NCBI GenBank assembly: GCA_965242985.1
Contig: OZ251520.1
Coordinates: 1,794,235 to 1,858,234, forward strand
Origin: an uncultured candidatus Porisulfidus sp.
GTDB lineage: Bacteria; Pseudomonadota; Gammaproteobacteria; Poriferisulfidales; Poriferisulfidaceae
DNA length: 64,000 nucleotides
Reading direction: 5' to 3'
The notes beneath the pieces were generated by a model that did not search any database, had not been told where the DNA came from, and saw only the letters and a list, made by a program, of their open reading frames with translations. Position numbers and translations under genes: made by a program. The first letter of the stretch is position 1, and every line of letters starts with the position of its first letter. Of this stretch, positions 4,811-53,245 are shown piece after piece.

Positions 4811-5047
4811 ATGCCTTATTTCGTGTTCCGCGCCGAAGGCGACCCCGCGAACGCGGGCGCGCTGACCCTGCTCGATGCTTTCGAGGCCTACCGGGACGCG
4901 CGCTCGCTGGCGCGCGCCAGCCGCAAGGAAAACCCGGAAGAGGACCCGAAAGCGGTGCGGGTGGTGTTCGCGGAAACGGCCGAGCTGGCCGAGGCGCTGC
5001 TGCGCCAGCCGCGCGAGGCGCCGATTCTGAAAGAGTGGGAGAAGTAG
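4811..5047 (+). CDS. Small hypothetical protein (78 aa)
   Basis: ATG ORF with normal globular composition and host-like codon usage; no recognisable motif. Confidence 0.7.
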   Translation: MPYFVFRAEGDPANAGALTLLDAFEAYRDARSLARASRKENPEEDPKAVRVVFAETAELAEALLRQPREAPILKEWEK

Positions 5048-5080
5048 CGCAGCGCCGCCGGCGGACACGGCAGCGGGCAG

Positions 5081-5530
5081 ATGGACGAACTCGCCTACCG
5101 CGACACCTACCACGCGATCAACGAGCGGCGCTGCTGGTTCGAGAAGGCCCTCAACGCCCGCGCCTGCGACTGCCGCCTGAAGCGCCGCTTCCATCTGGCC
5201 GACCGCGAGGGGGTCGCCTGCACCGACGCGGACGCGCACCGGACCTGCGAAGCCTGGCTCGAGCGCCTGCGCCGCGAGGCGCGCCTGGCGCTGGCGCAGG
5301 GCGCGACTCCGGAAATCCTGCCGCACCGCCTGGAGGCCAAGGTGCAGGCCGGCGGCATGCGCGGTCTGGCGGAGCTGCTGGAGGAGCCGGACGAAAAACC
5401 CGAGGTGTCCGCCCTGCTGGCGCGCGCCGCGGACCGCTACGGCGGACTGGCGCGCGTTCCCCTCGCCGGCGTGGCCGCGGCGGTCGCGGCCTACGAGCCC
5501 CGGCGCCGTCCCGCCCGCAAGCGCCCTTAG
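5081..5530 (+). CDS. Hypothetical protein with N-terminal Cys cluster
   Basis: 149 aa; five Cys in RRCWFEKALNARACDCR...GVACTDADAHRTC. Confidence 0.7.
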   Translation: MDELAYRDTYHAINERRCWFEKALNARACDCRLKRRFHLADREGVACTDADAHRTCEAWLERLRREARLALAQGATPEILPHRLEAKVQAGGMRGLAELLEEPDEKPEVSALLARAADRYGGLARVPLAGVAAAVAAYEPRRRPARKRP

Positions 5531-7626
5531 GTCGTCAGGCGGCGGTAGATGTCCGTCACCTGCTGCGGCAGGCGGCGGACGTCGCTGACCACCGTGTAGC
5601 CGGCCGGACCGTACATGCGCGGCAGGTACTCCCGGGCGGCGTCGTCGATGGTGATGCAGAACGGGTGGATGCCGCCGCGGCGCGCCTCGATCAGCGCCTG
5701 GCGCGTGTCCTCGATGCCGTACTCGCCGCGGTAGTCGGTGTAGTCCTCGGGGCGGCCGTCCGACAGCGCGATCAGCAGCTTGCGGCGCGCCTCGACCCGC
5801 CCGAGCAGGCCCGACAGGTGGCGGATCGCCACCCCCATGCGCGTGTAGTCCTGCGGCAGGATGCCGCTGATGCGGGCCGCGACCGCGGCGTCGTAGTCCT
5901 CGTCGAAGCGCTTGACGCCGAACAGCTCGCAGCGCTTGCGGGTGATGCCGGAGAAGCCGTAGATCGCGTAGCGGTCCTGCAGCCGCTGCAGCGCCTCGCA
6001 CAGCAGGATCAGCGCCTCGCGCTCCAGGTCGTTGATCCAGCCCTTGGTCGAGCCGCTCATGTCGACCATGAACAGCACCGCGATGCTGCGCTCGTCGCGC
6101 GCCTGGCGCACGAACACCCGCCGGCTCAGCTCGCGCCCGGCGCGGGCCTCGCTCAGGGCCCGCACCAGCGCGTCCAGGTCGACCTCGTCGCCGTGCGGCT
6201 CGCCGCGATGCAGGCTGCGCCCGCCGCGGATCATCTCGAAGGTCCGGCACAGCGACTGCGCCAGGCCGTAGTGCTTGCGCAGGGTCCGTTCCGGGAAGTC
6301 GTCGAACTTCGGATGCACCTCGCGCTCGCGCAGCACGCACCAGCGCTTGCGGTAGCTGCCGCGGGCGTGGTCCCACTCCGGGTAGTGGCGCGCGCCCTCC
6401 TCGTGGTAGGTGCCCTTCCACACGTCGTCCGCGGCGCGGCCCGAGGCCTTGGCGTCGTACTCGCCCGGGCCGGCCGGCACCAGATGGTCGGGCGGGATCT
6501 CGCCGAAGTCCTGGTGGACCGAAACCAGCAGCCGGGCCACCTCGGCCGGCGGCTCGACCGGGCGCTCGTCGAGCAGCAGCGCCACCGGCGCCTCGCCGGG
6601 CGCCGGCTCCGGGTCCGGCGCGGCGCGGAACGTTCCGGGCTTGCGCTCCGCGCCGGTCTCGGCCTCCTCCCGCAGCCGTCCGAGCGCCTGCCGGAGTTCC
6701 TCTTTCTCCCGCGCCTGCCGCGCCGCCGAGGCGGCCGCCACCGCCGCCGGGTCCAACGTCCCCTGGTAGCAGCACGGCGCGAGCGGCGGCTCGCCGCGCA
6801 GGCGCCGCGCCCAGTCCAGGCTGTCGCGGGCGGTCGCCGCAGGATCGGCCAGCCGGTCCGCCGCCGCCCGCCACCGGCCGGCGGGTTCCGGATCGCCGAA
6901 GCGCTCCCGCAGCGCGGCCTGCAGCCGCGCGATGCCGGGCAGGTCGCGCGCCAGGCAAGCATCCAGGCGCAGCGTCTCCAGCCGGTGCAGCCGCGCCCGG
7001 TCCGCCGCGTCCGGCAGCGCCTCCCAGTCGGCGGCGCGCAGGTCGCGCCAGGTGCCGTGCCAGCACTGCGCCCACAGGTGCGCGACGGCGGCCTTGCACA
7101 GCTGGAAATTCAGATCCGCGTCGGCGCCGCGGCTCTCCGCCGCCGGCAGGAACAGGGTGCCGGTGTCGGTGTGCGCGGCCTCGCCCGCCTCGATCTTGAG
7201 CGGCCGGCCGTTCAGGCCGTGCACGAAGCCCTCCAGCACGCCGCGCACCCGGTCGAGCGGCAGCGCGCGCTCGGCCGCCCGACGCTCGGCCGCGAACTCG
7301 TCCAGCGCCCGCAGTCTGGCGACGCCGGCGCGCAGGCCCTCGCGGTCGAAGCCATCCATCGCCGCCAGGATCCACGCCTCCACCCCGTCCCGGTCGAGCG
7401 CCTCGAGCGCGTCCGGGGCGAGGTTCGCCACCTGGTAGCCCATCTCGGAGTTGGAGCGCGCCACCGCGCCCACCCAGCGCAGCACGAAGTCCTGCTCCTC
7501 GCGGCTGCGCGCCGCCAAGCGCTCGGCCGGGCCGCGGGCGGTGCGCCGGGACGACAGCACCGCGTCGACGTGCTCCTCGAGCCGTTCCTCCAGTTCGGAG
7601 ACTTCGCAGGGCGCAGACATGGGCAA
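5527..7626 (-). CDS. NorD/CbbO-type VWA-domain protein
   Basis: C-terminal VWA with MIDAS DMSGST, YTRMGVAIRH, LSDGRPED, GIEDTRQAL; start at 7626 or 7620. Confidence 0.9.
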   Translation of the reverse strand: MPMSAPCEVSELEERLEEHVDAVLSSRRTARGPAERLAARSREEQDFVLRWVGAVARSNSEMGYQVANLAPDALEALDRDGVEAWILAAMDGFDREGLRAGVARLRALDEFAAERRAAERALPLDRVRGVLEGFVHGLNGRPLKIEAGEAAHTDTGTLFLPAAESRGADADLNFQLCKAAVAHLWAQCWHGTWRDLRAADWEALPDAADRARLHRLETLRLDACLARDLPGIARLQAALRERFGDPEPAGRWRAAADRLADPAATARDSLDWARRLRGEPPLAPCCYQGTLDPAAVAAASAARQAREKEELRQALGRLREEAETGAERKPGTFRAAPDPEPAPGEAPVALLLDERPVEPPAEVARLLVSVHQDFGEIPPDHLVPAGPGEYDAKASGRAADDVWKGTYHEEGARHYPEWDHARGSYRKRWCVLREREVHPKFDDFPERTLRKHYGLAQSLCRTFEMIRGGRSLHRGEPHGDEVDLDALVRALSEARAGRELSRRVFVRQARDERSIAVLFMVDMSGSTKGWINDLEREALILLCEALQRLQDRYAIYGFSGITRKRCELFGVKRFDEDYDAAVAARISGILPQDYTRMGVAIRHLSGLLGRVEARRKLLIALSDGRPEDYTDYRGEYGIEDTRQALIEARRGGIHPFCITIDDAAREYLPRMYGPAGYTVVSDVRRLPQQVTDIYRRLTT

Positions 7627-7979
7627 ACAGCGGTGGCAGCTGCGCCATCAGTATAAAAGCCGGGGATCCGGGGAGGTCCGGCAATGCGCCACGCGGATGG
7701 CGCGGCAAAAGCGGGAAAACGCGCCGCGCCGGATATGAGCTACCATAGCTCGTCCGAGATTGGCAAAGACCCAGCCCATGATCACCGGACAGCCCCGCGG
7801 CTTGAAGCAGACCGACTTCTGCGGCGCCCGCGCGAGGCTTCTCCCGACTTGGCTGGCGAGCCGATGTCGCCCTTGCCCAGAGACCGCTCCGGCCCCAGGC
7901 CGGGCGATCACCCAGCTTCCCGAGCACGCGGCGCATTAACCCGGCGGAAGCCGAAAACCAGAACAAGAGGAATCCGGTC

Positions 7980-8915
7980 ATGGCGATGACGAACTTCGAG
8001 CAGCTTATGGCGCCGATACTGAACGCGTTTGGCAGAAACGAAACGCTTTCCACTTCCGAAATCCGCGCGCGCATCGCCAAAACAGAAAAACTCTCGGACG
8101 AGCAGCTGCGGGAGAGGTACGCCACCAGAGTGCCGGTCTTCCTGAACCAAGCCGGCTGGGCGATCCATTGCCTGCACAGGGCCGGGCTGCTCGCGCAAGT
8201 GCGGCGCGGCGTTTACCAACTTTCCGACAACGGCAAGAAACTGCGGGCCGAGAAACAAGAGGCGATCAACACCGCTTTCCTGAAGACGCGCTATCCGGAA
8301 TACAAAAAGTGGCGCCAGAGCACCGAACCTGAGACCCGCGCCCGCACCGGGCCGGAAACGACCGATGCCGAGGAGGCTGCTGATTCGCTGACGCCCATGG
8401 ACCGGCTGGAAGAGGCGCACGCGGAAATCCGGCGCCTGCTGGAGAGCGAGCTGCACCGGCTGATGCAGGAAGAAATCACGCCGGCGATGTTTGAACGCAT
8501 CGCGGTGGACCTCTTGAAAGCCATGGGCTACGGGAAAGGCCGCGCGGATTCGGCCGAAGTAACCGGCGGCCCCAATGACGGCGGCATCGACGGGGTCATC
8601 AAGGAAGACGCGCTCGGCCTGAGCAAGATCTACATTCAGGCGAAAAAGTACGCGGCCCCGTACTCCGTGAGCAGCGGCAAGCTGCGGGAATTCGCCGAAG
8701 CGCTCCGCGTGAAGCGGGCGACGAAAGGCGTGTTCGTGACCACCTCAAAATTCGCTCCCAGCGCGAAAAAAGAATACGCCGAGCGGGACGACATCGTCCT
8801 GATCGACGGCGAGGAACTTGTGCGCCTCATGATCCAGTACGAAGTGGGAGTCGCACGCCGGGACTTCGCCATTAAGAAAATCGATGAGAATTATTTCGCC
8901 GAAGAGGGACTGTAA
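7980..8915 (+). CDS. mrr: Mrr-family type IV restriction endonuclease
   Basis: N-terminal winged helix (NQAGWAIHCLHRAGLL...RRGVYQLS), catalytic FERIAVDLLKAMGY, DGGIDG, YIQAKKY, KGVFVTTSKF. Confidence 0.9.
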   Translation: MAMTNFEQLMAPILNAFGRNETLSTSEIRARIAKTEKLSDEQLRERYATRVPVFLNQAGWAIHCLHRAGLLAQVRRGVYQLSDNGKKLRAEKQEAINTAFLKTRYPEYKKWRQSTEPETRARTGPETTDAEEAADSLTPMDRLEEAHAEIRRLLESELHRLMQEEITPAMFERIAVDLLKAMGYGKGRADSAEVTGGPNDGGIDGVIKEDALGLSKIYIQAKKYAAPYSVSSGKLREFAEALRVKRATKGVFVTTSKFAPSAKKEYAERDDIVLIDGEELVRLMIQYEVGVARRDFAIKKIDENYFAEEGL

Positions 8916-8959
8916 CAAGAAAAACGGGGAGCAATCGCTCCGCGGAGAAGAACAACAAC

Positions 8960-11101
8960 ATGAAAATTCGAGACATCCTGTACGAGATCGACAATCAGCA
9001 GATTTTCGTTCCTGCTTTCCAGCGCGAATACGTCTGGAGCCGCGACGACGCGAAATCCCTGATCGATTCGCTCCTCAAGGAATATCCAACCGGCACCATG
9101 CTGACTTGGAAGACATCAAGTCCGCCGGAACTGAAACGTCAGAAGTACGACACAGCGCAAGGCGCCGTCAAACTGATCTTGGACGGACAGCAGCGCATTA
9201 CCACTCTCTACATGCTCATCCGGGGGGAAATCCCTCCGTACTACACCAAGTCGGAGATCGTGAACGACATCCGGGGGCTGCATGTGCAAGTGATGAATCT
9301 CGAGTTGTCCTACTACCAGCAGGTGCAGATGCGCAACGATCCCTACTGGGTAGATCTCACGAGAATTTTCAAAGGAGAAGTCCGCCTGTCCACATTACGC
9401 CGCCAGCTGCGCGAGCAAGGCATTGACCTCAGCGACGATCAAGAGGACCGCATCGAGGAGAATTTGCGAAAAATCGAGATGATTCTCGAGCGGGAATTCC
9501 GCGAGCAGGTGATCCCGGGAAACGCGACCATACGCGATGCCATCGACATCTTCTATAAAGTTAACGCCAGCGGCATCGCGCTCACCGACGCGGAACTGGC
9601 GCTGGCGCAAATTTCCGGCTACTGGCCGCAGGCGCGGTTATCTTTCAAGAAAAAACTAGTCAAACTAGCCGAAAACGGCTTCGTGCTGAAGCTGGACTTC
9701 GTGGTGTACGCGCTGCTCGGCTGCCTGTACCACGCCAGTATGAGCAAGGATCTGCAACGGCTGCACAGCAAAGACAACGACAAGCAGATTCGGCAAGCTT
9801 GGGATGTCTTAAACAACGAAGTGCTGGATTATGTCGCAAATTTCCTCCACGACCGGGCATATGTCGACCACACCGATGAAATCAACTCCATCTACGCGCT
9901 GATCCCGATCATCGTGTTTTTCTACGACAGGCGCGGCCAAACCGTATCCGAGGAACAACTCAACCGGATCGCGAAATGGTTCTACTGCTCGCAGGTCCGG
10001 GGCCGGTACGTCGGACAGATGCAGACCAAACTGCATAAGGATCTTCAGGTGGTCCAAGAATCCTCACGGCCTTTTGAGGAGTTGCTTGCGGTAATTGCGG
10101 AAGAAGAACGCGACCTCACCATCATGCCGTCCGAATTCGTCGGCCGCGGCACAGTTCATCCGTTATTCGGGCTGATGCGGTGGTACTTCAAGAGTCGGAA
10201 CGCTCGGTGTTTCACCACGGGACTCAGCATCCGCAAGAAGATGGGCAAGAAGTACCAGCTGGAGTACGACCACATCTTCCCTTGGGCACGCCTGCGGGAC
10301 GCTGGCTACACCAGGGACAACCGCCTCAAGTACGCATTGGCGCAGGAGCTGACCAATCGCGCCATTCTCACTCGGGTAGCGAACCGGAGGAAGTCCGCGC
10401 GGTCCGCCAAGGAATACCTCGCCGAAACCCGGGGCAAATTCCCCGATGCACTGGAGAAGCAGAGCATTCCGCCGAACGAGGAACTCTGGGAAATCGACCG
10501 CTACGAGGACTTTCTGCAGGCGCGCCGGCATCTGCTCGCCGAACAATTGAACCGTTTCCTCGAGGAACTTACCGCGCCGAACGACGAAGATGCGGCCGGC
10601 GCGATGACCCTGGCCGAACTGATCGCGGACGGCGAGAACGAGGAGTTGGAATTCAAATCCTCGCTGCGCTGGGACTATCGCGCCGGCGAAATCAGCAAAG
10701 CCCTTGAAGCGGTGGCCACCAAAACCGTTGCCGCTCTCGCCAACGCGGGCGGCGGCATGCTGCTGATTGGTATCAACGACGACGGGTGCCCGAAAGGCTT
10801 GGGCAACGATTACGCCTCCCTCAGCGGCGACAAAGATAAGTTCGAGCGGCACCTGCGGGCGCTACTCGGCGATCAGTTCGGAGATGCTTTCGTGGCAAGC
10901 GGCATTAAGATCGATTTCCCAGTTGTCGGAGACGTGGAAATCTGCCAAGTGGATGTGGCGCGTGCCCAAGAGCCGCTCTGGACCACCGTGAGAGACAAGC
11001 ACGGGCAGGCGCAGGAGAAACTGTACGTCCGGAACGGCAATGCTTCGCAGGAACTGGTCGGCGATGACCTCAGCGACTACCTGAAACAGCATTTCTCCTG
11101 A
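8960..11101 (+). CDS. GmrSD-like (DUF262 + DUF1524/HNH-like) protein with C-terminal AlbA_2/Schlafen domain
   Basis: VPAFQREYVW, LDGQQR, FYKVNASG (DUF262); EYDHIFP...N...ANRRKS (DUF1524-like); ENEELEFKSS...AALANAGGGMLLIGINDDG (AlbA_2). Confidence 0.85.
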   Translation: MKIRDILYEIDNQQIFVPAFQREYVWSRDDAKSLIDSLLKEYPTGTMLTWKTSSPPELKRQKYDTAQGAVKLILDGQQRITTLYMLIRGEIPPYYTKSEIVNDIRGLHVQVMNLELSYYQQVQMRNDPYWVDLTRIFKGEVRLSTLRRQLREQGIDLSDDQEDRIEENLRKIEMILEREFREQVIPGNATIRDAIDIFYKVNASGIALTDAELALAQISGYWPQARLSFKKKLVKLAENGFVLKLDFVVYALLGCLYHASMSKDLQRLHSKDNDKQIRQAWDVLNNEVLDYVANFLHDRAYVDHTDEINSIYALIPIIVFFYDRRGQTVSEEQLNRIAKWFYCSQVRGRYVGQMQTKLHKDLQVVQESSRPFEELLAVIAEEERDLTIMPSEFVGRGTVHPLFGLMRWYFKSRNARCFTTGLSIRKKMGKKYQLEYDHIFPWARLRDAGYTRDNRLKYALAQELTNRAILTRVANRRKSARSAKEYLAETRGKFPDALEKQSIPPNEELWEIDRYEDFLQARRHLLAEQLNRFLEELTAPNDEDAAGAMTLAELIADGENEELEFKSSLRWDYRAGEISKALEAVATKTVAALANAGGGMLLIGINDDGCPKGLGNDYASLSGDKDKFERHLRALLGDQFGDAFVASGIKIDFPVVGDVEICQVDVARAQEPLWTTVRDKHGQAQEKLYVRNGNASQELVGDDLSDYLKQHFS

Positions 11102-14938: not shown

Positions 14939-15717
14939 GCCGCGAACAGCAGCAGCGCGGTCCCCAGCGCCACCCGGTACAGCGCGAACGGCAGCATGCC
15001 GATGCGCTCGATCAGGCGCAGGAAGAAGTGGATGCAGAGCCAGCCGGCGGCGCCCGCCGCCAGCATGCCGAACAGCAGGACGCCGAGGTCCGGCGCCGGC
15101 GCGCCGGCGGCGGCCTCGCGCGCGGACAGGGCGCCGGCCGCGGCCACCGTCGGCAGCGCCAGCAGGAACGCGGCCCGCGCCGCCTCGGCGCGCCCGAGGC
15201 CCAGCAGCAGCGCCGCGGTCATGACGATCCCGGCGCGCGACACGCCGGGCGCCAGCGCCAGGCACTGCGCCAACCCGAGCGCGAGCGCCCCGCCCCAGCC
15301 GAGGTCCGCCAGGCCGCGCGCGCGCGCGTTGCGCGCGTCCGCCCACCACAGCAGCACGCCGAAGCCGAGCGTGGTCCAGGCGATGAACGCGACGTCGCGC
15401 AGCGCGGTCGACGCGAAGTCGTACAGCAGCGGCCCGGCGAGCAGGATCGGCGCCGTGGCCAGCAGCAGCCAGCGGAGCTCGCGCCGCGCCGCGCCGCCGG
15501 CCGCCCCCAGGCGCAGCCAGCCGGCGAGCTCGCGGCGGAAGTAGAGCGCGAGCGCCGCCAGCGTGCCCACGTGCACCGCCACGTCGAACACGTGCCCCTG
15601 GTCCGGCCAGCCGAGCAGCGCCGGCGCCAGCGCCAGGTGCGCGGAGCTCGACACCGGCAGGAACTCGGTGGCGCCCTGCAGCAGCGCCAGCGCCAGCGCC
15701 TGGGCCCAGTCCGTCAC
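14935..15717 (-). CDS. uppP: Undecaprenyl-diphosphate phosphatase
   Basis: [33 protein letters not shown] start at 15717. Confidence 0.93.
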
Positions 15718-18582: not shown

Positions 18583-18670
<88 letters not shown>

Positions 18671-18836
18671 GCGCTGCGGCGAACAGCGCCCCGCCGCAAT
18701 CGCCCACGCGCCGGCTAACAACTGTACGCCGGGACCGCGCGCCGGCGCGCCCCACGGAACGCTAGAGGTACACTCGTCCGCGCGAGCGCGCGGTTCCGGC
18801 CGCGCACTCCGCCCCGCCACTTTCAGGAGACCGCAC

Positions 18837-19106
18837 ATGGATATCGTCGACCGCTGCCAGATCGCCCGGGACGACATGGAGCTAGTGCGCCGGCTGTCCG
18901 GCATGCTTTCCAACCTGCAGGCCGGCACGGCCTACCTGGACAACGACCCCGACTTGCCGGCGCAGTTGGAAGAAGAGTACCAGCAGATGGCTGAGAAACT
19001 GGACCGGCTGGCGGCCACCGCCCAAGAGCTGTTTTCGGAATCGGAGGGCTGGCTGAAGAGAGTGGAAGAGAAAACGCACGATGGCGGCGGCGCGGAACCC
19101 GCCTGA
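18837..19106 (+). CDS. Hypothetical helical protein (89 aa)
   Basis: AGGAG RBS before ATG 18837; acidic amphipathic composition. Confidence 0.55.
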   Translation: MDIVDRCQIARDDMELVRRLSGMLSNLQAGTAYLDNDPDLPAQLEEEYQQMAEKLDRLAATAQELFSESEGWLKRVEEKTHDGGGAEPA

Positions 19107-19183
19107 ACGGATGCCGCACTGCTGGCCGGACACGATCAGTCGATTATCAACTTAGAGTCCGCGCAACCCTGCGAAATCCGGCC

Positions 19184-20074
19184 ATGCCCGCTCCTTACCC
19201 GATTATGGAAGTTCCACCGGAACAAGTTCCGGTGCCAGATTGGGAAGATATGGGCAGCAAGAAGAAGTTCTGGTTTCAGCCAACCGATGCCGAGCCCCTT
19301 TGGCTGTTCAAGTATTCGCAGCGAAACACCGGCCAGCATTGGTCCGAAAAAATTGCGGAAGAAGCGGCGAAAATGCTCGACATTGATTGCGCCAAGGTGG
19401 AACTGGCCCTATGCGAAAAGCAGCCGGGGTCCGCCACAAAATCATTTTTGAACGATGGATGGGAACTGGTACATGGCAACCAGTTGCTCGGAGTCAGTTT
19501 CCCTGATTACGACGAAGGCAAAAAATATCGCCAATCCAAGCATACGCTGGAAAACATCTTCGGCGCCATGGAAGTCGTGTTTGACGTTGCCGATGCTTCA
19601 AGCGCCAAGCGGAAATTGGCGGGCTACTTCGTTCTTGACGCCCTGATCGGAAATACGGACCGGCACCACGAAAACTGGGGCGCCTTGAGAAATGTCGAGC
19701 AAAACGAATGCGTCGACTCGATCGGCCCAACTTTCGACCATGCCTCATCCCTGGGCAGGGAACTTCTCGACGAGCGCCGCCGCATGCTGTTGCGAGAAAA
19801 TCGAGTCGGCAACTATGCCGAAAAGGGACGTGGCCCGATTTACTGGACGGAACGAGACCGACGCGGACTCAGCCCGCTGGAGCTCGTGAGACGGGCATCA
19901 AAAGAGTACGGCGAATGGTTCCGTCCCGCGCTGGAACAGATCAAGGAAGCGAATGCTGATGCGCTGACGGATCTGATCGAACGCGTGCCGGAAGATTGGA
20001 TGAGCCCGGAAGCGCGAGACTTCACGGCCCGCCTGCTGCACTATAATCTCGGCCAACTGCTGGAATTGCCCTAA
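19184..20074 (+). CDS. HipA-like Ser/Thr kinase (short, CtkA/HipT-like)
   Basis: MGSKKKFW, WLFKY, HWSEKIA, LDALIGNTDRHHENWG, PTFDHASSLG. Confidence 0.85.
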   Translation: MPAPYPIMEVPPEQVPVPDWEDMGSKKKFWFQPTDAEPLWLFKYSQRNTGQHWSEKIAEEAAKMLDIDCAKVELALCEKQPGSATKSFLNDGWELVHGNQLLGVSFPDYDEGKKYRQSKHTLENIFGAMEVVFDVADASSAKRKLAGYFVLDALIGNTDRHHENWGALRNVEQNECVDSIGPTFDHASSLGRELLDERRRMLLRENRVGNYAEKGRGPIYWTERDRRGLSPLELVRRASKEYGEWFRPALEQIKEANADALTDLIERVPEDWMSPEARDFTARLLHYNLGQLLELP

Positions 20075-20811
20075 TGCACACCCTGTACCTGTCTTGGCGA
20101 ACCCGCAATTCGAGCCGCCGGTGGTTTCCGGTCGGCCGTCTCGATATCGAGGCCGAGCCCACTCCCAGCTACCGCTTCCGGTACATCCGCGGAGCGAAGC
20201 AGGCGCAGGACCAAGCGAAGTTTCCGTTATTGGTGGAGTTCCCCAAACTGGAGCGAAGCTACGAATTCGGTGAACTGTTCCCGGTCTTCCAGAACCGGGT
20301 CACGCGGCCGACGCGGCCGGACTTCTCCGACTACGTTCACAGCCTCGGACTGACCGAAGATGCCAGCGCATTCGATATCCTGTCGGTCAGCGGCGGCAGG
20401 CGCGTTACGGACCCCTACGAAGTGTTTCCAAAACTTGCGAAAAACGACGACGGAAGTTTTGCCTGCCGGTTTTTTCTGCACGGCGAAGAAAGCGCCGCCT
20501 CAACGGTGCGGGATCGCATCCAGCGGCTGCGGCCGGGAGAAACGCTGCTGGCGGTCGCAAGCCCGGACGGCACTACTTCCGGACCGGCGGTGCAACTGAA
20601 AACGAAAGACGGGCATGTGATCGGCTGGACACCGGACTATCTCGTGCCGGAATTGACTCCTGTTCTGGAAAATCCCGCGCAATGTTCCGCGCAAGTCGCG
20701 CAGATCAACCAGCGCCCGTACAAAAACCGGCATGTGCTCATCGAGATGCGCGGCAACTGGGGCGACCACGAACCCATGAGCGGCGCAGAACTCCAACCCT
20801 TGGTCGACTAA
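20074..20811 (+). CDS. HipA-N/HipS-like domain plus HIRAN-like domain protein
   Basis: WFPVGRL...YRFRY...LFPVFQNRV...RPDF then FFLHG...GETL...IGWTPDYL; TAATG overlap with the kinase. Confidence 0.75.
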   Translation: MHTLYLSWRTRNSSRRWFPVGRLDIEAEPTPSYRFRYIRGAKQAQDQAKFPLLVEFPKLERSYEFGELFPVFQNRVTRPTRPDFSDYVHSLGLTEDASAFDILSVSGGRRVTDPYEVFPKLAKNDDGSFACRFFLHGEESAASTVRDRIQRLRPGETLLAVASPDGTTSGPAVQLKTKDGHVIGWTPDYLVPELTPVLENPAQCSAQVAQINQRPYKNRHVLIEMRGNWGDHEPMSGAELQPLVD

Positions 20812-20855
20812 TCCCTATCCGCTGGAATGCGGAGGGCCATCGCGCGCCAGCATCC

Positions 20856-23800
20856 TTACGGCTCCGTCGACTTCGCCTGTTCCGGTGCGGCCACATCCAC
20901 CACGCACACCGCTATTTTTCTAGCTTCTTCCTCCAACAAGGTCTCCTGAAGGCGTGCTTCGAGCTCAGCCGCCGAGCGCGGCCACGCTCCCTGCGACGGC
21001 GGCGGCTGTTTGCGGTCTGCCCCGAACCAAAACACCACGTACAGGCCGCAGCCACCAGCCCGCGGGTCCCGGACGTACTTGGCGATCAACTGGTCGCGCA
21101 TGGCGCTCCACAAATCATCACTGGTGTTCTTCTTGATTTCGATCGGCATCGCAAAACCGTGCGCGCCGCCAAAGGTCACCATAACGTCTGCTCGCGCATC
21201 GTCCGCAAGGTGCTTTTCTGGTTCCACTCCAAACCGGGCCAAAGACTGTTGGAGATCGGACACTAGCGCATCCCGGCAAGCTTCCTCATGTTTCGGCTTC
21301 TCCAACTTGCGATGCGGGCCCTCGTTCCAATACTGCCGGTAGTCATCCGTATCACCGTTCCGGATCCGGTGTGACACTTCCTGCAGCACCACTTCCGTCA
21401 GCGCCTTCAGATCGTCTGCATTCGCCGGCTGCTGATTGTTCAGAAGCCGGTTGGCCCGACACACATCCAAATGGCGAAATTCTGCTTCACGCCATACCGC
21501 CCGCTGATTGGCCCTAGCGGCCTGCAACTCAGATTGCCAAGCCCCCAATTTCGGCTCCGCCAATAATCTGGCTAGCGCGGCGGCGGCCTCCGCGGTCGGC
21601 CTGGAATCCAGTTCAGACCGCAGTCGATAGAGAAAACTCGAAGCCTCTTCGGCAGGCGTCCCCCGCACTTTCCTCAAGCCTTTATACGGCACATAAAACT
21701 CCCCAATCTTCCGGAACAAAAGTTCAATCGTTGGTGTAGAAAGAAACTGCTCGGTACTGATAGTCGAGCAAAAATCGGCCAAATGCCCAACACGCTTTTC
21801 CGCGGCATTGACGAAATCCGCCAGTTTCTGCAGGAATTCCTCCGGCCGTGCAAGCACACCCGCTGCCAACCAGCGAATCCGAGTACCTACGTTCATGCTT
21901 CCCAATTTCGCTTTGCGGCGGATTAACGCCAAAAAATCCGCTTGGCTGGAATGGCGCAAGGCCGCTTGCAAAAGCGCATTCAACCAGACAAGCTGCCGCT
22001 TGGATGCCCGCACCGGAAAAGCGCGCAGCATTGCCATGGCGGATATCTGCGCAACCCGCGCCCAGTCATCATCATGAGCCAGTTCGCGAATGCTCGCCTC
22101 CAACGTTTGATATCCTTTCCTGTTGTGTTTCAGAAGTGCGCCCGCACAGGTTTGCAGCACATCAGCCACCAGTTCCGGGCGAGTTTTAACCAGTGCCGAA
22201 TACCATGCTGGGAACAAGTTTTCTCCGCCAGTCAGGTGAAAGGCACAGGCTTGCCGTAAATGCCCGTCTCTGATGTCCTGCCCGGCATTCGGCACCGCTT
22301 CCGAATTCAGCTCTAGTCCCGCCAAAACCGGCGGGCCGAGCAAGTGAATCTTGTTGTCGATATGCAGTTGAACAATGTCCTCAACGCTGGGCATCTGCGG
22401 ATGGTTAACCGAACGTCGCAATCCCTCCACCGCCGCATGAGTCAATACCTGATCATGGCACAAGAAATTTTCCAGCCTTTCCTCTGGCATGAATCCTCGC
22501 GCCACCGCCTCCCGACCCAAGTAGGCTTGCCCAAGGTGGTACAGGAGACCAAGCGGCACATTGCCTTCCCGCAATGCGGTCTCGCTCGACTTTGCAGACT
22601 TCAATCGTTCCTTGGCTTCAGCGTCCTGCCTTGCTACTTGGACACGCCGTCGCTCCGTATCTAACTTGATGCCGTGAAAGATCTCGTTGAGCACTTCTGT
22701 TCGCTTCGGATCTTTCTTTGCGGTTCCCTCGATTTCTGTCCGCAACAATGATATATCGTGATCCCTACGGCAGAAAATTGCCTGTTCAGCCAAGTACCGA
22801 AATATCTGACCGCCATCCGCTTTCGGCAGTTTTTTTAGACACCAACGACTGAAAGCAGGCGGACACCATTGCTTGAATAACAACGACTTTGCCTTAGTCA
22901 TGCATGACTCGAAATCTTTTTCTCTTGAACACTGATCAAAGTATTTGTCCAGCAATCCCACTTGAATATCCGGTCGAGCCTGCAACCATTCCTGAATTTG
23001 AGAAAATTCCAGTCTTCCCGCCAACATCCCGTGTTTGTCGGGAACGATCCCAAGCCAGCGGTGAAGGCGGTCGAGGCTGATAGCCTCACCGTGTTCTTGC
23101 AACCCCTTCATCGCCAAACGAACGCACCACCCGGGACTTAAGTGATTCAACACAGGGAGAAAAACCTCAGCCTTTGCGGAAACCTGATCTAAAAGAGAAA
23201 AGATACCCTCTGGCGGAAATATTGAAATCAAGTGTTCCCAAGAACTGGTATAGTATGTCTCTTGGAAAGCATAGGCTGGAACACCGCTTAAACAATGGGG
23301 AACATACAGGTAATTCAAAATTTCCGGAAATGGTATCGCATCCGGATAGAGATCGTATAGCAGAAGTCCCATAAGGTCGCCGCGGGAGTCGGCAACCTTA
23401 CCGTTGCGGATGTCCTCCGTCAGCATTTTGGCTTCTCTATCACGGGCGGGGCCTTTCCAGTGGTGCAGCAACAATTTGAGAGCAATTACGCGCAGATGCA
23501 AGTGCCATGAAGAATCCCGGATGACCTGCAGCAGAGTACCGCGCAAATCCGGGAAATCCGCACCATACCGCATGGCATCCAGGACGCAGCCAGCAACTTC
23601 CTGCTGCCTATCGCTCCGGTCTGTGGTCAGCAGGATTTCCCGAAGCCTGTCTTTCATGTCCGGGGTCGCAAGCGCGCCCAAAGATGATTCCAGCGTGGAT
23701 GACGACCAAAACAAAGAATGATGTGCTTTCATATGCTGACCCAGACCTTTCAAAAGACGGGATTTACTGTTAACGGAAAAGTCCTTGGTGTCTCCGTACA

Positions 23801-24917
23801 GTGCCACTCCCACCGGATCCCTATCGATGATGAAATCACGCCAACTCACGCACAGAGTCGCCAGCCATGCCGACAAGCCACGCAACTGGCTTACAGCGAT
23901 TCCATCCACCCCCGTAATTGATGCAAGTATGCGCCCAACCGGCAAATGACGACGATCGATGCAATCCGAGATGCATCGGGCGGCCAGATATTCAGCGATA
24001 TGGCGATGAATGGGGGCAACCACTCCGCTGCCGGAAAACAGCCTAGTGCGCACAACCAACGGAAACAACTTGTCGTCTTCGCCGCTCAATTCGCCGAGCC
24101 ACGGGAAATCCTCCGTCGCCACATTTTCCGTCAGCGCGTAGCCGGCCTTACCGGCGATGATCTGGATCGCGCAGAGAAATCCCGCGGCATGCAGATTCCG
24201 TTCTAGGCTCGTGTGCCGCAACGCCGTCACATTCTGATGCCGCGAGTTGCGCTCTCCGATCAACTTGCGGCAGGCCAATTCAAACGTTTCCCGCCGCGTT
24301 TCCGGCCATGCGCCCGCCGCCACCGCTTTCGCCAACAGGTCCAGCGTCTGAGGGTTGGTCAGAAGTTCCGACAGCCCTCTCTGTTCTGCTTGCCGCGTGA
24401 ATTCAGTGGCATCCTCAACCTGCGGATCATGTTCCAAGATCTGGAGAATATCGGCCTCCGCCAACGGCTTGAGACACAGCACCTGCACTTTCCCGCCCTG
24501 CGCCACCATCGCCAAACGGTTTCGGTCAAGCGCATCCAACCAGTCGGCACTCCGGCAAGACAAGCGGAATCGAGGCCGCCCTAGTTTTTCCAAGCGGGCC
24601 CGAACCACATCGAGAGGCGTTCGGGCATCCTGCGCTCCCGCCCGGATTTCGTCCAGCCCGTCAATGAACAGCACTTTCCCGTGCCATTCCGGACGATCCT
24701 CAAAAGTCAGAAAATCCCGCGCCAACACCATTTCTCCGCCATCCGCCAAGGCGGCACATTCCTGCTCGAACGCAGTGGTCTTACCTGCGCCCGGGTTCCC
24801 GATCAAAACGTAGGCCGGTAAATCCCGGTACTCAGACAACGGCCGGGGGTCAGCGGACGACGCACGGTCCGTCCCGTCTGAAGAAATTGGGATGCAATTG
24901 CGCTCGACGAGATGCAT
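20856..24917 (-). CDS. NACHT/STAND NTPase with long helical region and C-terminal PD-(D/E)xK-like nuclease
   Basis: Walker A GNPGAGKTT, Walker B LFIDGLDE, FRLSCR sensor; C-terminal EKHLADDARADV...PIEIKK. Confidence 0.8.
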   Translation of the reverse strand: MHLVERNCIPISSDGTDRASSADPRPLSEYRDLPAYVLIGNPGAGKTTAFEQECAALADGGEMVLARDFLTFEDRPEWHGKVLFIDGLDEIRAGAQDARTPLDVVRARLEKLGRPRFRLSCRSADWLDALDRNRLAMVAQGGKVQVLCLKPLAEADILQILEHDPQVEDATEFTRQAEQRGLSELLTNPQTLDLLAKAVAAGAWPETRRETFELACRKLIGERNSRHQNVTALRHTSLERNLHAAGFLCAIQIIAGKAGYALTENVATEDFPWLGELSGEDDKLFPLVVRTRLFSGSGVVAPIHRHIAEYLAARCISDCIDRRHLPVGRILASITGVDGIAVSQLRGLSAWLATLCVSWRDFIIDRDPVGVALYGDTKDFSVNSKSRLLKGLGQHMKAHHSLFWSSSTLESSLGALATPDMKDRLREILLTTDRSDRQQEVAGCVLDAMRYGADFPDLRGTLLQVIRDSSWHLHLRVIALKLLLHHWKGPARDREAKMLTEDIRNGKVADSRGDLMGLLLYDLYPDAIPFPEILNYLYVPHCLSGVPAYAFQETYYTSSWEHLISIFPPEGIFSLLDQVSAKAEVFLPVLNHLSPGWCVRLAMKGLQEHGEAISLDRLHRWLGIVPDKHGMLAGRLEFSQIQEWLQARPDIQVGLLDKYFDQCSREKDFESCMTKAKSLLFKQWCPPAFSRWCLKKLPKADGGQIFRYLAEQAIFCRRDHDISLLRTEIEGTAKKDPKRTEVLNEIFHGIKLDTERRRVQVARQDAEAKERLKSAKSSETALREGNVPLGLLYHLGQAYLGREAVARGFMPEERLENFLCHDQVLTHAAVEGLRRSVNHPQMPSVEDIVQLHIDNKIHLLGPPVLAGLELNSEAVPNAGQDIRDGHLRQACAFHLTGGENLFPAWYSALVKTRPELVADVLQTCAGALLKHNRKGYQTLEASIRELAHDDDWARVAQISAMAMLRAFPVRASKRQLVWLNALLQAALRHSSQADFLALIRRKAKLGSMNVGTRIRWLAAGVLARPEEFLQKLADFVNAAEKRVGHLADFCSTISTEQFLSTPTIELLFRKIGEFYVPYKGLRKVRGTPAEEASSFLYRLRSELDSRPTAEAAAALARLLAEPKLGAWQSELQAARANQRAVWREAEFRHLDVCRANRLLNNQQPANADDLKALTEVVLQEVSHRIRNGDTDDYRQYWNEGPHRKLEKPKHEEACRDALVSDLQQSLARFGVEPEKHLADDARADVMVTFGGAHGFAMPIEIKKNTSDDLWSAMRDQLIAKYVRDPRAGGCGLYVVFWFGADRKQPPPSQGAWPRSAAELEARLQETLLEEEARKIAVCVVDVAAPEQAKSTEP

Positions 24918-26167
24918 CAGTCCGCCTCGAACCAGTGCGCCGCGGGGTGCAGTAGAAACTCTTCCAACGATATGCCGCCGCCTGCGCCGACCACCAGAAC
25001 CCGTTGCGGTCGGAAACGCCGTTTGAACTCCCCCAGCCCGGGCGCCGGCCGGCCGCGCCGGGCACTCTTGACTTCAATGGCGACGGTTCCCGGCCCCTGC
25101 TGGAGCGCGAAATCCACTTCGTCGTCGCGGTCGCGCCAGTAGCAGACATCGATGTATCGCCCGCTGTTGCACAGATGCGCGCCCACCGCGCTCTCCGTCA
25201 GCCGGCCCCAGAACTCGCCGTCCTCGCAGGCCTGCTCAAACGAGTACCCGGAACGCGCCGCCATGAACGAAGTGTCGAGCACGTTGAGCTTGGGGTTGGA
25301 AATCTTGACCCGGTATTTCGAACTGGAGTAATTCCGCAAGCTCGCCAGCAAGCCGCTACGCGACATCAATCCCAGGTAATGCGCAATGGTGTCGGTACTG
25401 CCGGCGCCGTCCAACTGCCCGCGCAACTTGTTGTAGGAGAGAATTTGGCCCGAGCAGTCGCAGCCCAGTTCGAACAGTTGCCGGAACAGGGCCGGCTTAT
25501 CAACGCGCGTCACCATGAAAATGTCTTTCTCAAGGTGCGGCTCGATCACCGAAGCGCGGATGTAATCACACCAGTGTTCGTGATCGCCGAGGTGGGGAAC
25601 GCTGCCCGGATAACCGCCGAAGTAAACGTAGCGCGCCACGTCGAAACCGAACGCGTCGCGCATCTCCCGGAACGACCAAGGCTCGACATGGAGCGTCTCG
25701 AAACGTCCCGTCAGCCCCTCCGTCTGTCCCTGCTGCATAAGAAACGGCGCGGACTCGATAATCACCACATGCAACGGGCAATCATTCATTCGGTCCTCGT
25801 CCCAGAGGCCCTTGACCGTCGACGACCACCGCGGGATGCTCTGGATTTCATCCAGCACCAGCACAAACCCGCGCACGGAGCGGTCCGCTTCCAGCCGCGC
25901 CCGCCGCCACGCCCGGATCAGCCAATCATGCCCGGGCATTTCGGCGAGGTTCGCCGTCTTTCCCACCGCAAACGGCGGCGCCTCCGTCCCAAGGCTGTCC
26001 CCCGACAGGTACTGATGCTCCCGGTCCAGCCGCGACAGCGCCTGCCGCACCAGCGTGGTCTTCCCGGTCTGCCGCGGCCCGGACACGAGAATCAGGCGTC
26101 TCGGAGGCTCCTTGAGCCTCTCCAAGAGGACGCCGACATGCTCGCGCTGGTATGATTCCATGAGCAT
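24917..26167 (-). CDS. AAA_14 ATPase with DUF4143-type C-terminus
   Basis: GPRQTGKTTL, LVLDEIQ, GGYPG, ESAVGAHL, YWRDRDDEVDF...AIEVKS; TGATG overlap with the NACHT gene. Confidence 0.88.
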   Translation of the reverse strand: MLMESYQREHVGVLLERLKEPPRRLILVSGPRQTGKTTLVRQALSRLDREHQYLSGDSLGTEAPPFAVGKTANLAEMPGHDWLIRAWRRARLEADRSVRGFVLVLDEIQSIPRWSSTVKGLWDEDRMNDCPLHVVIIESAPFLMQQGQTEGLTGRFETLHVEPWSFREMRDAFGFDVARYVYFGGYPGSVPHLGDHEHWCDYIRASVIEPHLEKDIFMVTRVDKPALFRQLFELGCDCSGQILSYNKLRGQLDGAGSTDTIAHYLGLMSRSGLLASLRNYSSSKYRVKISNPKLNVLDTSFMAARSGYSFEQACEDGEFWGRLTESAVGAHLCNSGRYIDVCYWRDRDDEVDFALQQGPGTVAIEVKSARRGRPAPGLGEFKRRFRPQRVLVVGAGGGISLEEFLLHPAAHWFEAD

Positions 26168-26212
26168 AATATTACATTACTTTAAATAAAATTTCAAGTA
26201 ATGTAATATTAT
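26166..26212. promoter_or_regulatory. Perfect 17-bp inverted repeat (operator-like) overlapping the AAA_14 start codon
   Basis: ATAATATTACATTACTT (26166-26182), 13-bp spacer, AAGTAATGTAATATTAT (26196-26212). Confidence 0.75.
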
Positions 26213-26398
26213 TATATATCATTTATTAATTGATATATTTCTGGTTAAGTCTCAGAGGACCCCAGAGGCTTCCCGGTTCAAGTCCTTGCTGCTCCCTCAG
26301 CCCCGGCAAAACACGCCACCCGCGCCGCGCCTGCCCGGCGCGCCTGCGCGCGGGCGTAAAATCACGGCTCCCGGCGCAACCGCAGCCGCCGCCCGACC

Positions 26399-26794
26399 AT
26401 GCCGCCCCGCCGCATCCGCCCCGCCCTGCTGCTGGCCGCCGCGCTGCTGGCGGCCGGCTGCAGCGACGACGAGACCTCGCTCGTAATCGACGACCCCGCG
26501 CTGCGGCCGCACCCCGCCGAGGCCGGCGCCTGGCTCGGCACTTTCCGCATCCGCAACCGCACCGGCGAGACCCGCACGGTGGAGCGGGTCGAGGCCGCCG
26601 GCTTCGGCGCCGTCGCGTTCAGCGCGGGCGCGCCGCTCCAGGTCGAGCCCGGGCGCGAGCTCGTCCTGTCGCCGGACGGCCCGCACCTGGTGCTGCGCGA
26701 GCCCCGCGGCGCCCCGCGCGCCGGCGACCGCAGCCTGCTGACCCTGCGCTTCGCCGACGGCCGCGTGCTGCGCGCCGATGCCGAAGTCCGCTGA
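26399..26794 (+). CDS. PCu(A)C copper-chaperone-like lipoprotein (degenerate ligands)
   Basis: Lipobox LLAAG-C; IRNRTG...VEPGRELVLSPDGPHLVL...GDRSLLTLRFADG matches the PCuAC pattern. Confidence 0.7.
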   Translation: MPPRRIRPALLLAAALLAAGCSDDETSLVIDDPALRPHPAEAGAWLGTFRIRNRTGETRTVERVEAAGFGAVAFSAGAPLQVEPGRELVLSPDGPHLVLREPRGAPRAGDRSLLTLRFADGRVLRADAEVR

Positions 26795-50704: not shown

Positions 50705-53245
50705 TCAGATATCGGCCAAAGCTTGCGGGAATTCTTCTTCCTTGAATACGAGGCGGAAAACACCTTTGGCAATACCATCCTGCACAGTCATGGTGCCGCA
50801 ATTAAAAGCATCTTGCAGCGTCTCCATAACTCGCTGCTTATATCTGGTATCGGGATTCCCCCGCAAGTGTTCCCCCTTAGTCTCGAACACCAGTACGCAA
50901 GATATCCCGTCAGTCGTCCGACCCATGGCCACAAAATCCGGCCATATCCGTTCTTTTTTCCAGCCGCGAAGATAATATCCCCCCTGCCTCACCGCTATTC
51001 GATGCCACCATTGTATGGCTCTTTGTTTGTCCAAATAACAAGCAAAATTGCGTTCCAGATCGGAGTCAAATTGACTCTTGAACACCGGCTCAAACAGACT
51101 AAGCTGCAGGTGTCGAAACTCCTCCCCCAACAAAGGTTCAGCATCTTGAGGCAGATTGACCTCATAACTTTCCCTCACCCCGAAATTACCGCCTCCAGCG
51201 CGCAAATCAACGCGTATTTCACCTCGTTGCAGTTTGTCACGGAATACATCCTCTGATTGCTTTTCCACTTCTTTTTGGATATGTTCCCGAAGTGCAAAAA
51301 CCAAAGAACCGCGCTTGTCGTGTATGGTCTCATCGGTCTCCCCCTGTTTACGCAACTCAGCAATCATGTCTTGAACGATGCGCACTCCCTGCCATGGATT
51401 GGGAACAATGTCCTGTACGCGGGTCACAAACCAAGATATCTTCAAGGTTTTGTCGACATATAAAGCATGGTCGCCGTGAAAAGTCGGCGCGCCAAAGCCT
51501 ACACTAACCATTTGCTGGCGAGCCGCATTGGCTTGCATTGGCTGAAGGTCAAGAGCTTCGATTTCATTCCAGCGTACTTCTGGAAGAATGTGGCGTACAT
51601 AGTCCAATTCCACCCAACTGCCATTTTCTCTGTGCAGTACTTTCGGCAGAAAAAGTTCGCGTCCTTGGTAAGTCGCGCGGCGCTTTATGGTGTAGCGTTT
51701 CATCGCGGGATCCCTCTCTCCGATAACCTTGTTGCCTAGCCCGCTTAAGCCTTCCTGTTCCAAGCCATTCTTGACTTGTTCCACAGCGGTCTGCACATCA
51801 CTGTTCCAACAATGCACATAACACTGGTCTAGCTTAGCCCGCCCGGTTCTGCTAGCGTATGGCTGACGCATCACTCTTCCCACTAGTTGTGTGATGGCCC
51901 GTTGTGCCGTGGTGTTGTCCAGCATTACCAGAAGATAAGCATAGGGACAGTCCCAACCTTCCATCAGTGCGGATTTGGTGATGATCCATCGCACTGGCGA
52001 GTAGCGCGACATCAAGTCCTCATGTCCTAACTCATCCCGCTCCGCAGATTTCACTCGCACTGCATCCGGAGAAACTCCCAAATACTGAATTAGGTGCTCC
52101 CGAACGTCTTCAGCGTGCACGTGCTGGCCATCCTGCTGGCCCCTGCCAGTACGTTCCACCCGCACTACTGCTATCGGACGTATATATCTGCCCTCCTCTT
52201 GGTCGAAAAGTTCGGCCTCTTCGGCCAGCTGCGCAAGTCGCTCATGCGCCTGCGCCAAAGTCGCTTGCCATTCCGTGTTCGGATACGATACCACCTGCAC
52301 CGGCAACTTGATCATCTCTTCTTTCTCCAACTCGGCGCCGCCGACATCCACCAGAAGATTGCTGATGCCGGGATGCGGCGTGGCCGACAACTCAATCACC
52401 AAACTCGGGTCCAGCCTACTTATGGAACGCGCAAATTCTTCTCTTTGGCCCCCTTGCCTCCCATATGCTTTGTGTGCCTCATCCAGCACTACCACCGGCC
52501 GCAACAATTTGAATACATTGAACAAACTCTGTTTGACCGGCCTACTCCGTTGAACTAGCCCATCAGCGACCTGATTAACCGATTCATCCTGCCCAACCGA
52601 ATCATCAGTGACGATCTCCAAGTCAGGATGACAAATCCGAAGCTTTTGATTTCCCGGAAGATCATCACTGTCCGGAAAGAAACTTGGATAGCGTCCGCTA
52701 TCTCGGAACATGCGTAGAAACTCCCGGTCCCGGTATCGATTGGCAGCAGGCAGCATCAGTAGCAATACGCACAAATAGTTTTCAGTTTGAGCAGCAGTAA
52801 ACACATCATCTTTCTCCAGCAGTTTTACTCGCCCACCGCTAGCCCGCTCCAATCTTTGCCGGTAAGGATGCTCTTTATTCCACAACGCTTTACGGGTCTG
52901 CGCGTAAATCGCTTTCGTAGGCACAATCCATAACGTCAGGCCGGTTTGCCGGTTCAGCTGCTCCAGAACTGCTGCCGCCAACAATGTCTTCCCGCCCCCC
53001 GTCGGCACCTTGAAACATACGTGCGGAATTGGACGGCCGGCATCATCAACACGACTAATGTATTCCTCTTGCGAGAGTTTCTTCCATGCTGCTTTCGGGT
53101 AGTTGCGGACATCTTCGGGGATTTCTACATCCGCCATCTCCAACGCCGCGACAGAGATCTCCGACTGCCTTTTTGACTTGGCCAATTCTTGCCACCAGCG
53201 CACGAATGTGTCTAGGGCCGCTGCTTGATATTCCTTGAGTTCCAT
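50705..53245 (-). CDS. res: Type III restriction-modification Res subunit
   Basis: VPTGGGKT (Walker A), VLDEAH, EGWDCP, C-terminal IWPDFV...VFETKG nuclease motif; TAATG overlap with the mod stop. Confidence 0.9.
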   Translation of the reverse strand: MELKEYQAAALDTFVRWWQELAKSKRQSEISVAALEMADVEIPEDVRNYPKAAWKKLSQEEYISRVDDAGRPIPHVCFKVPTGGGKTLLAAAVLEQLNRQTGLTLWIVPTKAIYAQTRKALWNKEHPYRQRLERASGGRVKLLEKDDVFTAAQTENYLCVLLLMLPAANRYRDREFLRMFRDSGRYPSFFPDSDDLPGNQKLRICHPDLEIVTDDSVGQDESVNQVADGLVQRSRPVKQSLFNVFKLLRPVVVLDEAHKAYGRQGGQREEFARSISRLDPSLVIELSATPHPGISNLLVDVGGAELEKEEMIKLPVQVVSYPNTEWQATLAQAHERLAQLAEEAELFDQEEGRYIRPIAVVRVERTGRGQQDGQHVHAEDVREHLIQYLGVSPDAVRVKSAERDELGHEDLMSRYSPVRWIITKSALMEGWDCPYAYLLVMLDNTTAQRAITQLVGRVMRQPYASRTGRAKLDQCYVHCWNSDVQTAVEQVKNGLEQEGLSGLGNKVIGERDPAMKRYTIKRRATYQGRELFLPKVLHRENGSWVELDYVRHILPEVRWNEIEALDLQPMQANAARQQMVSVGFGAPTFHGDHALYVDKTLKISWFVTRVQDIVPNPWQGVRIVQDMIAELRKQGETDETIHDKRGSLVFALREHIQKEVEKQSEDVFRDKLQRGEIRVDLRAGGGNFGVRESYEVNLPQDAEPLLGEEFRHLQLSLFEPVFKSQFDSDLERNFACYLDKQRAIQWWHRIAVRQGGYYLRGWKKERIWPDFVAMGRTTDGISCVLVFETKGEHLRGNPDTRYKQRVMETLQDAFNCGTMTVQDGIAKGVFRLVFKEEEFPQALADI

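Follow-up and report, generated by a model that had tools for sequence, protein, structure and literature searches.

Erebus/Avs10 proteins are bacterial relatives of the NLRs of animals and plants, and they are treated as single-protein sensors. The NCBIfam models NF058533-NF058535 are ProA, HyoA and EruA, respectively, and correspond to the Prometheus, Hypnos and Erebus systems (reportedly from van den Berg et al. 2024); the accessions flanking this block belong to unrelated enzymes. Erebus, Hypnos and bNACHT64 have been brought together under the name Avs10, whose representatives are reported to sense the HK97-fold major capsid protein of phages, with co-expression killing the cells, and the general Avs logic is one of target binding, then oligomerization, then nuclease activation (PMC13581612). 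PDC-S01, a candidate for defense, combines an ATPase with a member of the PD-(D/E)xK superfamily according to its published description and has been ranked as the fourth most common defense system or candidate in prokaryotes (PMC12988326). Here we describe a locus in which members of these two families are joined. It lies in a stretch of 64,000 nucleotides (hereafter the window; contig OZ251520.1 of assembly GCA_965242985.1, positions 1,794,235 to 1,858,234) from an uncultured candidatus Porisulfidus sp., a sponge symbiont whose genome comprises one contig of 1.88 Mb with a guanine-plus-cytosine (GC) content of 70.7%. We consider it probable that the locus encodes a two-gene antiviral module, made up of an Erebus/Avs10-family NACHT nuclease and an obligate partner of the PDC-S01 type, on a horizontally acquired island next to a tRNA-Leu gene. 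Both parts are already catalogued; what appears to be new is their strict, co-inherited pairing in one clade of EruA and the palindromic site that their promoters share.

The two genes, the domains of the larger protein and the junction between the genes are arranged as follows.

20856..24917, minus strand: EruA-family NACHT STAND protein of 1353 amino acids (aa), assigned by its match to NF058535
23898..24830, minus strand: NACHT NTPase module of the large protein, residues ~30-340 (P-loop domain, helical domain, winged helix), from motifs, model and Foldseek
21618..23891, minus strand: alpha-solenoid of the large protein (HEAT/ARM/TPR-like), residues ~343-1100, presumed sensor, all-helical in the model
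20883..21425, minus strand: C-terminal PD-(D/E)xK-fold nuclease-like domain of the large protein, residues ~1165-1345, from motif, model and Foldseek
24917..26167, minus strand: AAA_14/DUF4143 ATPase of 416 aa, assigned by Pfam and as PDC-S01 by PADLOC
24915..24919, minus strand: TGATG stop/start overlap, read directly, which suggests translational coupling

The large protein matches the EruA model over almost its whole length (residues 25-1342 against positions 15-1317 of 1318, E 2.8e-261), with a weaker match to the HyoA model NF058534, and has more than 190 full-length homologs. Pfam finds in it a weak P-loop match and nothing in the C-terminal domain. Walker A (GNPGAGKT) occupies residues 40-47 and Walker B (FIDGLDE) residues 84-90, and G40, P42, G43, G45 and K46 of the former and D86, D89 and E90 of the latter are invariant. 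An AlphaFold2 model of residues 1-1100, made with 80 homologs, reaches a mean confidence (pLDDT) of 87.6 and contains the P-loop, helical and winged-helix module; its best Foldseek match is NLRC4 (4kxf, E 3e-6), followed by NAIP/NLRC4 and NLRP14 and then by HEAT/ARM solenoids. With only ~30 residues before the NTPase, the protein lacks an N-terminal effector. The solenoid itself resembles CAND1, importins, SF3b155 and Scc2, and conservation is lowest here, at 0.37-0.57 versus 0.55-0.72 in the NACHT and nuclease ends, as is expected of a diversifying sensor.

At the other end, a model of the last 265 residues (pLDDT 89.4) shows a helical lead-in followed by an alpha-beta-beta-beta-alpha core, in which strand 2 carries D1244 and strand 3 carries E1260-x-K1262. 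Among 80 sequences, E1211, D1244, E1260 and Q1276 never vary, K1262 is kept in at least 90%, and the best-ranked Foldseek matches of the model are nearly all PD-(D/E)xK proteins (McrC, SfsA, Can2, Cdn1, Mus81, NucS/EndoMS and PaqCI). The original prediction, which was made by reading the DNA alone, had placed the NACHT at the very N-terminus with no effector before it, followed by a long helical region and a nuclease-like tail motif. All three are borne out by these results, in that no domain precedes Walker A (residues 40-47), the model is all-helical repeats from residue ~343 to 1100, and the quoted motif is both real and conserved. It had also described this layout as the reverse of that of Avs proteins, and so it is. 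However, the reversed layout does not distinguish this locus: the EruA profile is matched to its last position (1317-1318 of 1318) and the HyoA profile nearly to its last (as far as 1427 of 1430), and the layout is hence a trait of the whole Erebus/Hypnos family. The proposal of an undescribed STAND system has likewise to be given up, as the large protein is a full-length homolog of EruA, whose family is now within Avs10, and the small protein is already the PADLOC candidate PDC-S01 (PDLC04791).

In the small protein, Pfam recognizes both AAA_14 (E 3.4e-20, 72.8 bits against a gathering cut-off of 27) and DUF4143 (E 2.1e-25, 89.8 bits against 28.1), and the PDLC04791 model is matched from position 1 to 394 of 395 (E 7.1e-141). 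In an alignment of 62 sequences, namely the window protein and 61 partners from related loci, Walker A (G30-P-R-Q-x-G-K36-T-T), Walker B (D106-E107) and a PD-(D/E)xK-type set (E325, D352, E365-V-K367) are each conserved in at least 95%. The nuclease-like domains of the two proteins were compared as possible homologs and are not detectably related (hhalign probability 0.1). A sequence search of the PDB with both proteins returned no solved relative beyond P-loop matches.

The original prediction took the TGATG overlap of the two open reading frames (ORFs), which it had located correctly and which lie on the minus strand, to suggest one two-component unit. The junction reads cTGATGc, so that the stop codon TGA and the start codon ATG share one base. 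A scan of one genome per species yielded 513 relatives, from which the best 80 loci were kept; one of these has no upstream DNA, leaving 79 informative loci. A homolog of the small protein (46-57% identity) stands directly upstream on the same strand in 77 of the 79, and in 70 of these 77 the genes overlap, by 4 nt in 64 loci and by 1 nt in six. The homologous loci are spread over 11 phyla (Pseudomonadota, Nitrospirota, Nitrospinota, Acidobacteriota, Latescibacterota, Gemmatimonadota, Chloroflexota, Verrucomicrobiota, Rhodothermota, Tectimicrobiota and Thermodesulfobacteriota). The two proteins have also diverged together, their pairwise distances being correlated (r = 0.88, Mantel p <= 0.001), with the ATPase evolving more slowly than the NACHT protein. 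These counts, and this correlation, uphold the view of a unit and not of mere neighbors, and they give a positive answer to the question, raised with the original prediction, of whether the pair recurs in other genomes.

A tree of 112 proteins unites every one of the 88 paired genes in a single clade (support 100), which also contains two secondary losses and two loci without scorable partner status; pairing has hence been kept in 88 of 90 clade members. Every other EruA branch in the tree, and the Hypnos-like outgroup, is solitary. Because all paired genes form one clade, we conclude that the partner was recruited once and then kept. Solitary EruA genes were also sought by running the EruA profile against a set of 400 Pseudomonadota genomes. 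Within 1.5 kb upstream there is no AAA_14 gene at the four best-scoring homologs (L094-L097; 1205-1422 bits, above the cut-off of the model) or at seven further homologs from the same search, and at three plasmid-borne EruA homologs the AAA_14 partner was likewise not found. The solitary loci share no flanking ORF, which indicates that solitary EruA has no alternative conserved partner. At one of them (L103), a gene for a Type I specificity subunit (HsdS-like, 5574..6995) overlaps the start of the EruA homolog, which is thus embedded in a restriction-modification locus.

It is this set of observations that bears on an alternative, namely that PDC-S01 and Erebus are two independent single-gene defense systems that are merely adjacent, as genes in defense islands often are. 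One might expect as much from the existence of solitary EruA genes, from an orphan PDC-S01 gene in the host genome (its product 42% identical) and from the listing of PDC-S01 by PADLOC as a single-gene candidate. Yet independent systems would hardly keep one gene order on a shared strand in 77 of 79 loci from 11 phyla, overlap at stop and start in 70 of 77, diverge in step, descend from a single pairing event kept in 88 of 90 clade members and depend on one shared promoter. We therefore regard mere adjacency as very unlikely. A unit of two co-translated genes is the reading we retain, and the strict co-inheritance, together with the intact ATPase and nuclease motifs of the partner, argues that the partner is a working subunit.

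The promoter just mentioned is part of the same argument.

26166..26212, no strand: palindrome with 22-nt arms (26166-26187 and 26191-26212) that are 95% complementary, lying over the operon promoter
26169..26197, minus strand: sigma70-like promoter read from the sequence, with -35 TTGAAA, a 17-nt spacer and -10 TAATAT

This combination of TTGAAA, 17 nt and TAATAT is the only promoter-like site on 20600..26400 (5.8 kb), and it sits on the palindrome. The consensus of the palindrome upstream of the ATPase gene, across related loci, is TTACGC-TATTGAGTAA-NN-TTACTCAATA-GCGTAA. With at most 4 mismatches, its 22-bp core occurs between -170 and +10 relative to the start in 54 of the 62 loci whose upstream DNA is long enough, compared with 6 matches in 912 kb elsewhere in these loci. 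It lies ~15-60 nt upstream of the AAA_14 start, most often ending 15 nt before the ATG, and its left arm contains a -35-like TTGAGT or TTGACT, followed by a 17-nt spacer and, after the right arm, a -10-like TAATAT; the geometry of the predicted window promoter thus recurs in related loci. The window palindrome is a diverged copy, with outer arms identical to those of a Thauera locus (L032). At solitary EruA loci the palindrome was looked for and is absent. Judged by its sequence and position, the palindrome is an operator-like control site. The promoter would place the transcript start at or next to an ATG (26161 in the window), from which a leaderless mRNA is predicted; as relatives also align from residue 3, the true start of the ATPase is probably this third codon.

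Near-perfect palindromes also occur away from the AAA_14 gene, at 11257-11278 and 15554-15575 of locus L006, at 15367 of L051 and at 10202 of L074, one of the two in L006 preceding a gene for an NYN-domain protein. In L007, L023, L071 and L073 the palindrome is doubled.

A palindrome in this position naturally raises the question of whether the AAA_14/DUF4143 protein is nothing but a regulator of the operon, a safety catch that binds the palindrome and keeps the level of a toxic NACHT nuclease low, with no role in sensing or killing. The palindrome covers exactly the -35 element and the spacer of the one promoter there is, and it accompanies the cassette from phylum to phylum; changes in one of its outer arms are mirrored in the other across loci, as would be expected for a dimeric DNA binder; and other AAA_14 paralogs in the host genome each have upstream repeats of their own. 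Against this, no helix-turn-helix or other DNA-binding Pfam domain was detected in 55 partners, a pure repressor would not need conserved Walker A and B motifs along with an intact E...D...ExK motif, and solitary EruA genes do without such a regulator. We consider a purely regulatory partner unlikely, if clearly less so than mere adjacency.

We favor instead a role as helper. In the mechanism that we envisage, by analogy with Avs proteins, the solenoid sensor would recognize a conserved protein of the phage, most probably its major capsid protein, as reported for Avs10; binding would release autoinhibition, allowing the NACHT domains to oligomerize with ATP; and the C-terminal nuclease domains, clustered in this way, would cut DNA and stop the infection at the expense of the cell. 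The ATPase partner and the NACHT protein would be made from one leaderless transcript by coupled translation, and the partner would most likely act as a second subunit by which the NACHT nuclease is gated or assisted, in the manner of a helper or licensing ATPase-nuclease. It is also possible that the partner represses the operon through the promoter palindrome. Among the possible functions of the partner, then, we put helping or licensing first, perhaps together with autorepression, and pure regulation second; mere adjacency is unlikely. A more specific proposal, in which one clade of PDC-S01 is a dedicated NLR helper that joins the activated NACHT oligomer, supplies or licenses DNA cleavage and autorepresses through the palindrome, we put forward tentatively, as less likely than not.

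The setting of the pair is consistent with an antiviral role. The window, at ~75% G+C overall, contains three low-GC islands, and that of the pair (~18671-26290, or ~18.7-26.3 kb) has a GC content of 52-62% against ~75% in its flanks. The features between the left edge of this island and the pair are these.

18583..18670, plus strand: tRNA-Leu(CAG), found by ARAGORN, the left anchor of the island
19184..20074, plus strand: PDC-M03A, a HipA_C-like kinase (PADLOC E 5.3e-85; Pfam HipA_C E 1.5e-10)
20074..20811, plus strand: PDC-M03B, 245 aa (PADLOC E 1.4e-62), overlapping PDC-M03A

The island begins immediately after the tRNA gene; an integrase and clean att-type direct repeats were looked for there, and none was found. 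The candidate system PDC-M03A/B (19184..20811) shares this island with the Erebus-like pair and is convergent with it. Contigs from public sequencing runs confirm the locus sequence in a number of samples, one of which holds a strain variant. In the second low-GC island (7980-11101), an Mrr-type Type IV restriction enzyme (7980..8915) is accompanied by a protein with GmrSD_N and Schlafen AlbA_2 domains (8960..11101) that matches HEC-05, and the third (50705-54729) holds a Type III restriction-modification pair (Res, 50705..53245, and Mod, 53245..54729, both on the minus strand). The setting of the pair is therefore a defense island, with PDC-M03 adjacent and Mrr, GmrSD/Schlafen and Type III restriction-modification genes elsewhere in the window.

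This setting matters for a further alternative, in which the module is not antiviral at all and is instead an addiction or otherwise selfish element, or a pair of DNA-maintenance enzymes (an ATPase and a nuclease) with the palindrome as their DNA target. Such an element would account for the patchy distribution of a horizontally transferred unit, for the additional copies of the palindrome in some loci and for the presence of 11 AAA_14 genes in a host genome of 1.88 Mb. It does not fit as well with the location of the pair among defense genes, with an NLR-type architecture that is typical of immune sensors, or with the fact that the nearest named family is that of an antiphage protein reported to respond to a phage capsid protein, and we regard it as very unlikely, the least likely of the readings considered here.

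The host genome carries a second pair of AAA_14 and EruA-like genes (C1:1689963-1695295, corresponding to 4925..10308 of locus L093). Its proteins are 49.5% (AAA_14) and 34% (EruA-like) identical to those of the first pair, and it shares with the latter a low GC content, a gene overlap (here of 4 nt) and a palindrome of its own (L093 4923-4944). Just upstream of this second pair, an exact 15-nt direct repeat, CAATTTTGCTCAATA, occurs at L093 4500-4514 and 4929-4943, around a GC-rich stretch of 429 bp, and one of its copies is half of the palindrome. Downstream, the second EruA gene shares its last 4 nt with an ORF of 456 aa (L093 10305..11675), for which neither Pfam nor PADLOC gives a match and which is without counterpart in the window. 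The 11 AAA_14/DUF4143 genes of the genome include the orphan PDC-S01 gene, and those outside both pairs lie at C1:356244-357569 and in eight other places (the orphan and eight distant paralogs). Several of the paralogs are preceded by repeats of their own, such as the four copies of ACTGTACAAATGGACGCT before C1:658006-659109 on the minus strand. The genome also encodes a homolog of ProA of Prometheus (C1:1544385-1550039; 2124.8 bits, NCBIfam cut-off 1500). In congeners, the copy number of the pair ranges from zero to three.

A number of points weigh against the reading of the locus as an Erebus/Avs10-type antiviral module with an obligate partner, and we set them out together. The score of the large protein against NF058535, 870.6 bits, is below the curated equivalog cut-off of 1000, which is passed by its clade-mates P0035 (1022.6 bits) and P0086 (1025) and by the Thauera homolog (1028), and its identity to solitary EruA homologs, the best-scoring included, is 25-30%; given this score and this identity, the trigger and the output may differ from those of tested Erebus/Avs10 proteins. 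From the NCBIfam numbering and the solitary state of close homologs, we infer that the Erebus construct that was tested was a single gene. In two members of the paired clade (L027 and L069), a degraded AAA_14 partner was sought and no remnant was found, and since these members have lost the gene without trace, the partner is perhaps not strictly essential. The assignment of the C-terminal fold depends on Foldseek matches of which the best, to McrC, has an E value of 4.4e-3 (probability 0.99), with none at or below 1e-3. The same lack of a detectable helix-turn-helix that counts against a purely regulatory partner makes the binding of the partner to the palindrome a guess. Finally, PDC-S01 is a candidate whose role in defense is without experimental validation (PMC12988326).

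We nevertheless think that the pairing is of interest beyond this locus. In the literature that we searched, which did not extend to the original Erebus paper, an obligate coupling of PDC-S01 to a clade of Erebus and the promoter palindrome are not described; papers in which DUF4143 and NACHT are both mentioned are not concerned with the pair, and a search under the gene names EruA and HyoA returned nothing relevant. A whole Erebus-like clade, represented in no fewer than 11 phyla and frequent among sponge symbionts, appears to depend on a second, co-translated ATPase-nuclease. If our proposal is correct, the pair would be a prokaryotic counterpart of sensor/helper arrangements and would offer a first mechanistic handle on PDC-S01, since a protein whose logic is known, and with which it is strictly paired, is a direct route to learning its function. 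We note that a cassette carrying its own promoter, palindrome and leaderless start would explain how the module can work after transfer between distant phyla.

Among known systems, the Avs1-4 and Avs7 proteins resemble the large protein in combining a STAND NTPase, a helical repeat sensor and a PD-(D/E)xK-type effector, the last of these putative in the large protein, and they presumably follow a common logic. In these proteins, however, a Cap4- or Mrr-type nuclease is N-terminal and a TPR sensor C-terminal, whereas here the NTPase stands at the extreme N-terminus, the putative effector is C-terminal and there is a second gene for an ATPase-nuclease; neither Cap4 nor Mrr was found among the Foldseek matches of the C-terminal domain. 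The likeness to Erebus/Avs10 is far closer and extends to length, N-terminal NACHT, helical sensor and C-terminal nuclease-like domain. What sets the paired clade apart, its two losses excepted, is the upstream AAA_14/DUF4143 gene together with the promoter palindrome, both of which solitary EruA and Hypnos-like genes are without. With PDC-S01 the small protein shares a full-length match to the model and both the AAA_14 and DUF4143 domains; in contrast to the catalogued single-gene candidate, it is coupled to a NACHT protein and co-evolves with it. The paired sensor and helper NLRs of plants and the NAIP/NLRC4 pair of animals offer an analogy, though only that, for two NTPase-containing proteins that act as one immune unit, with the difference that the partner here is not a second NACHT protein and is instead an AAA_14/Orc-Cdc6-like ATPase with a nuclease-fold domain.

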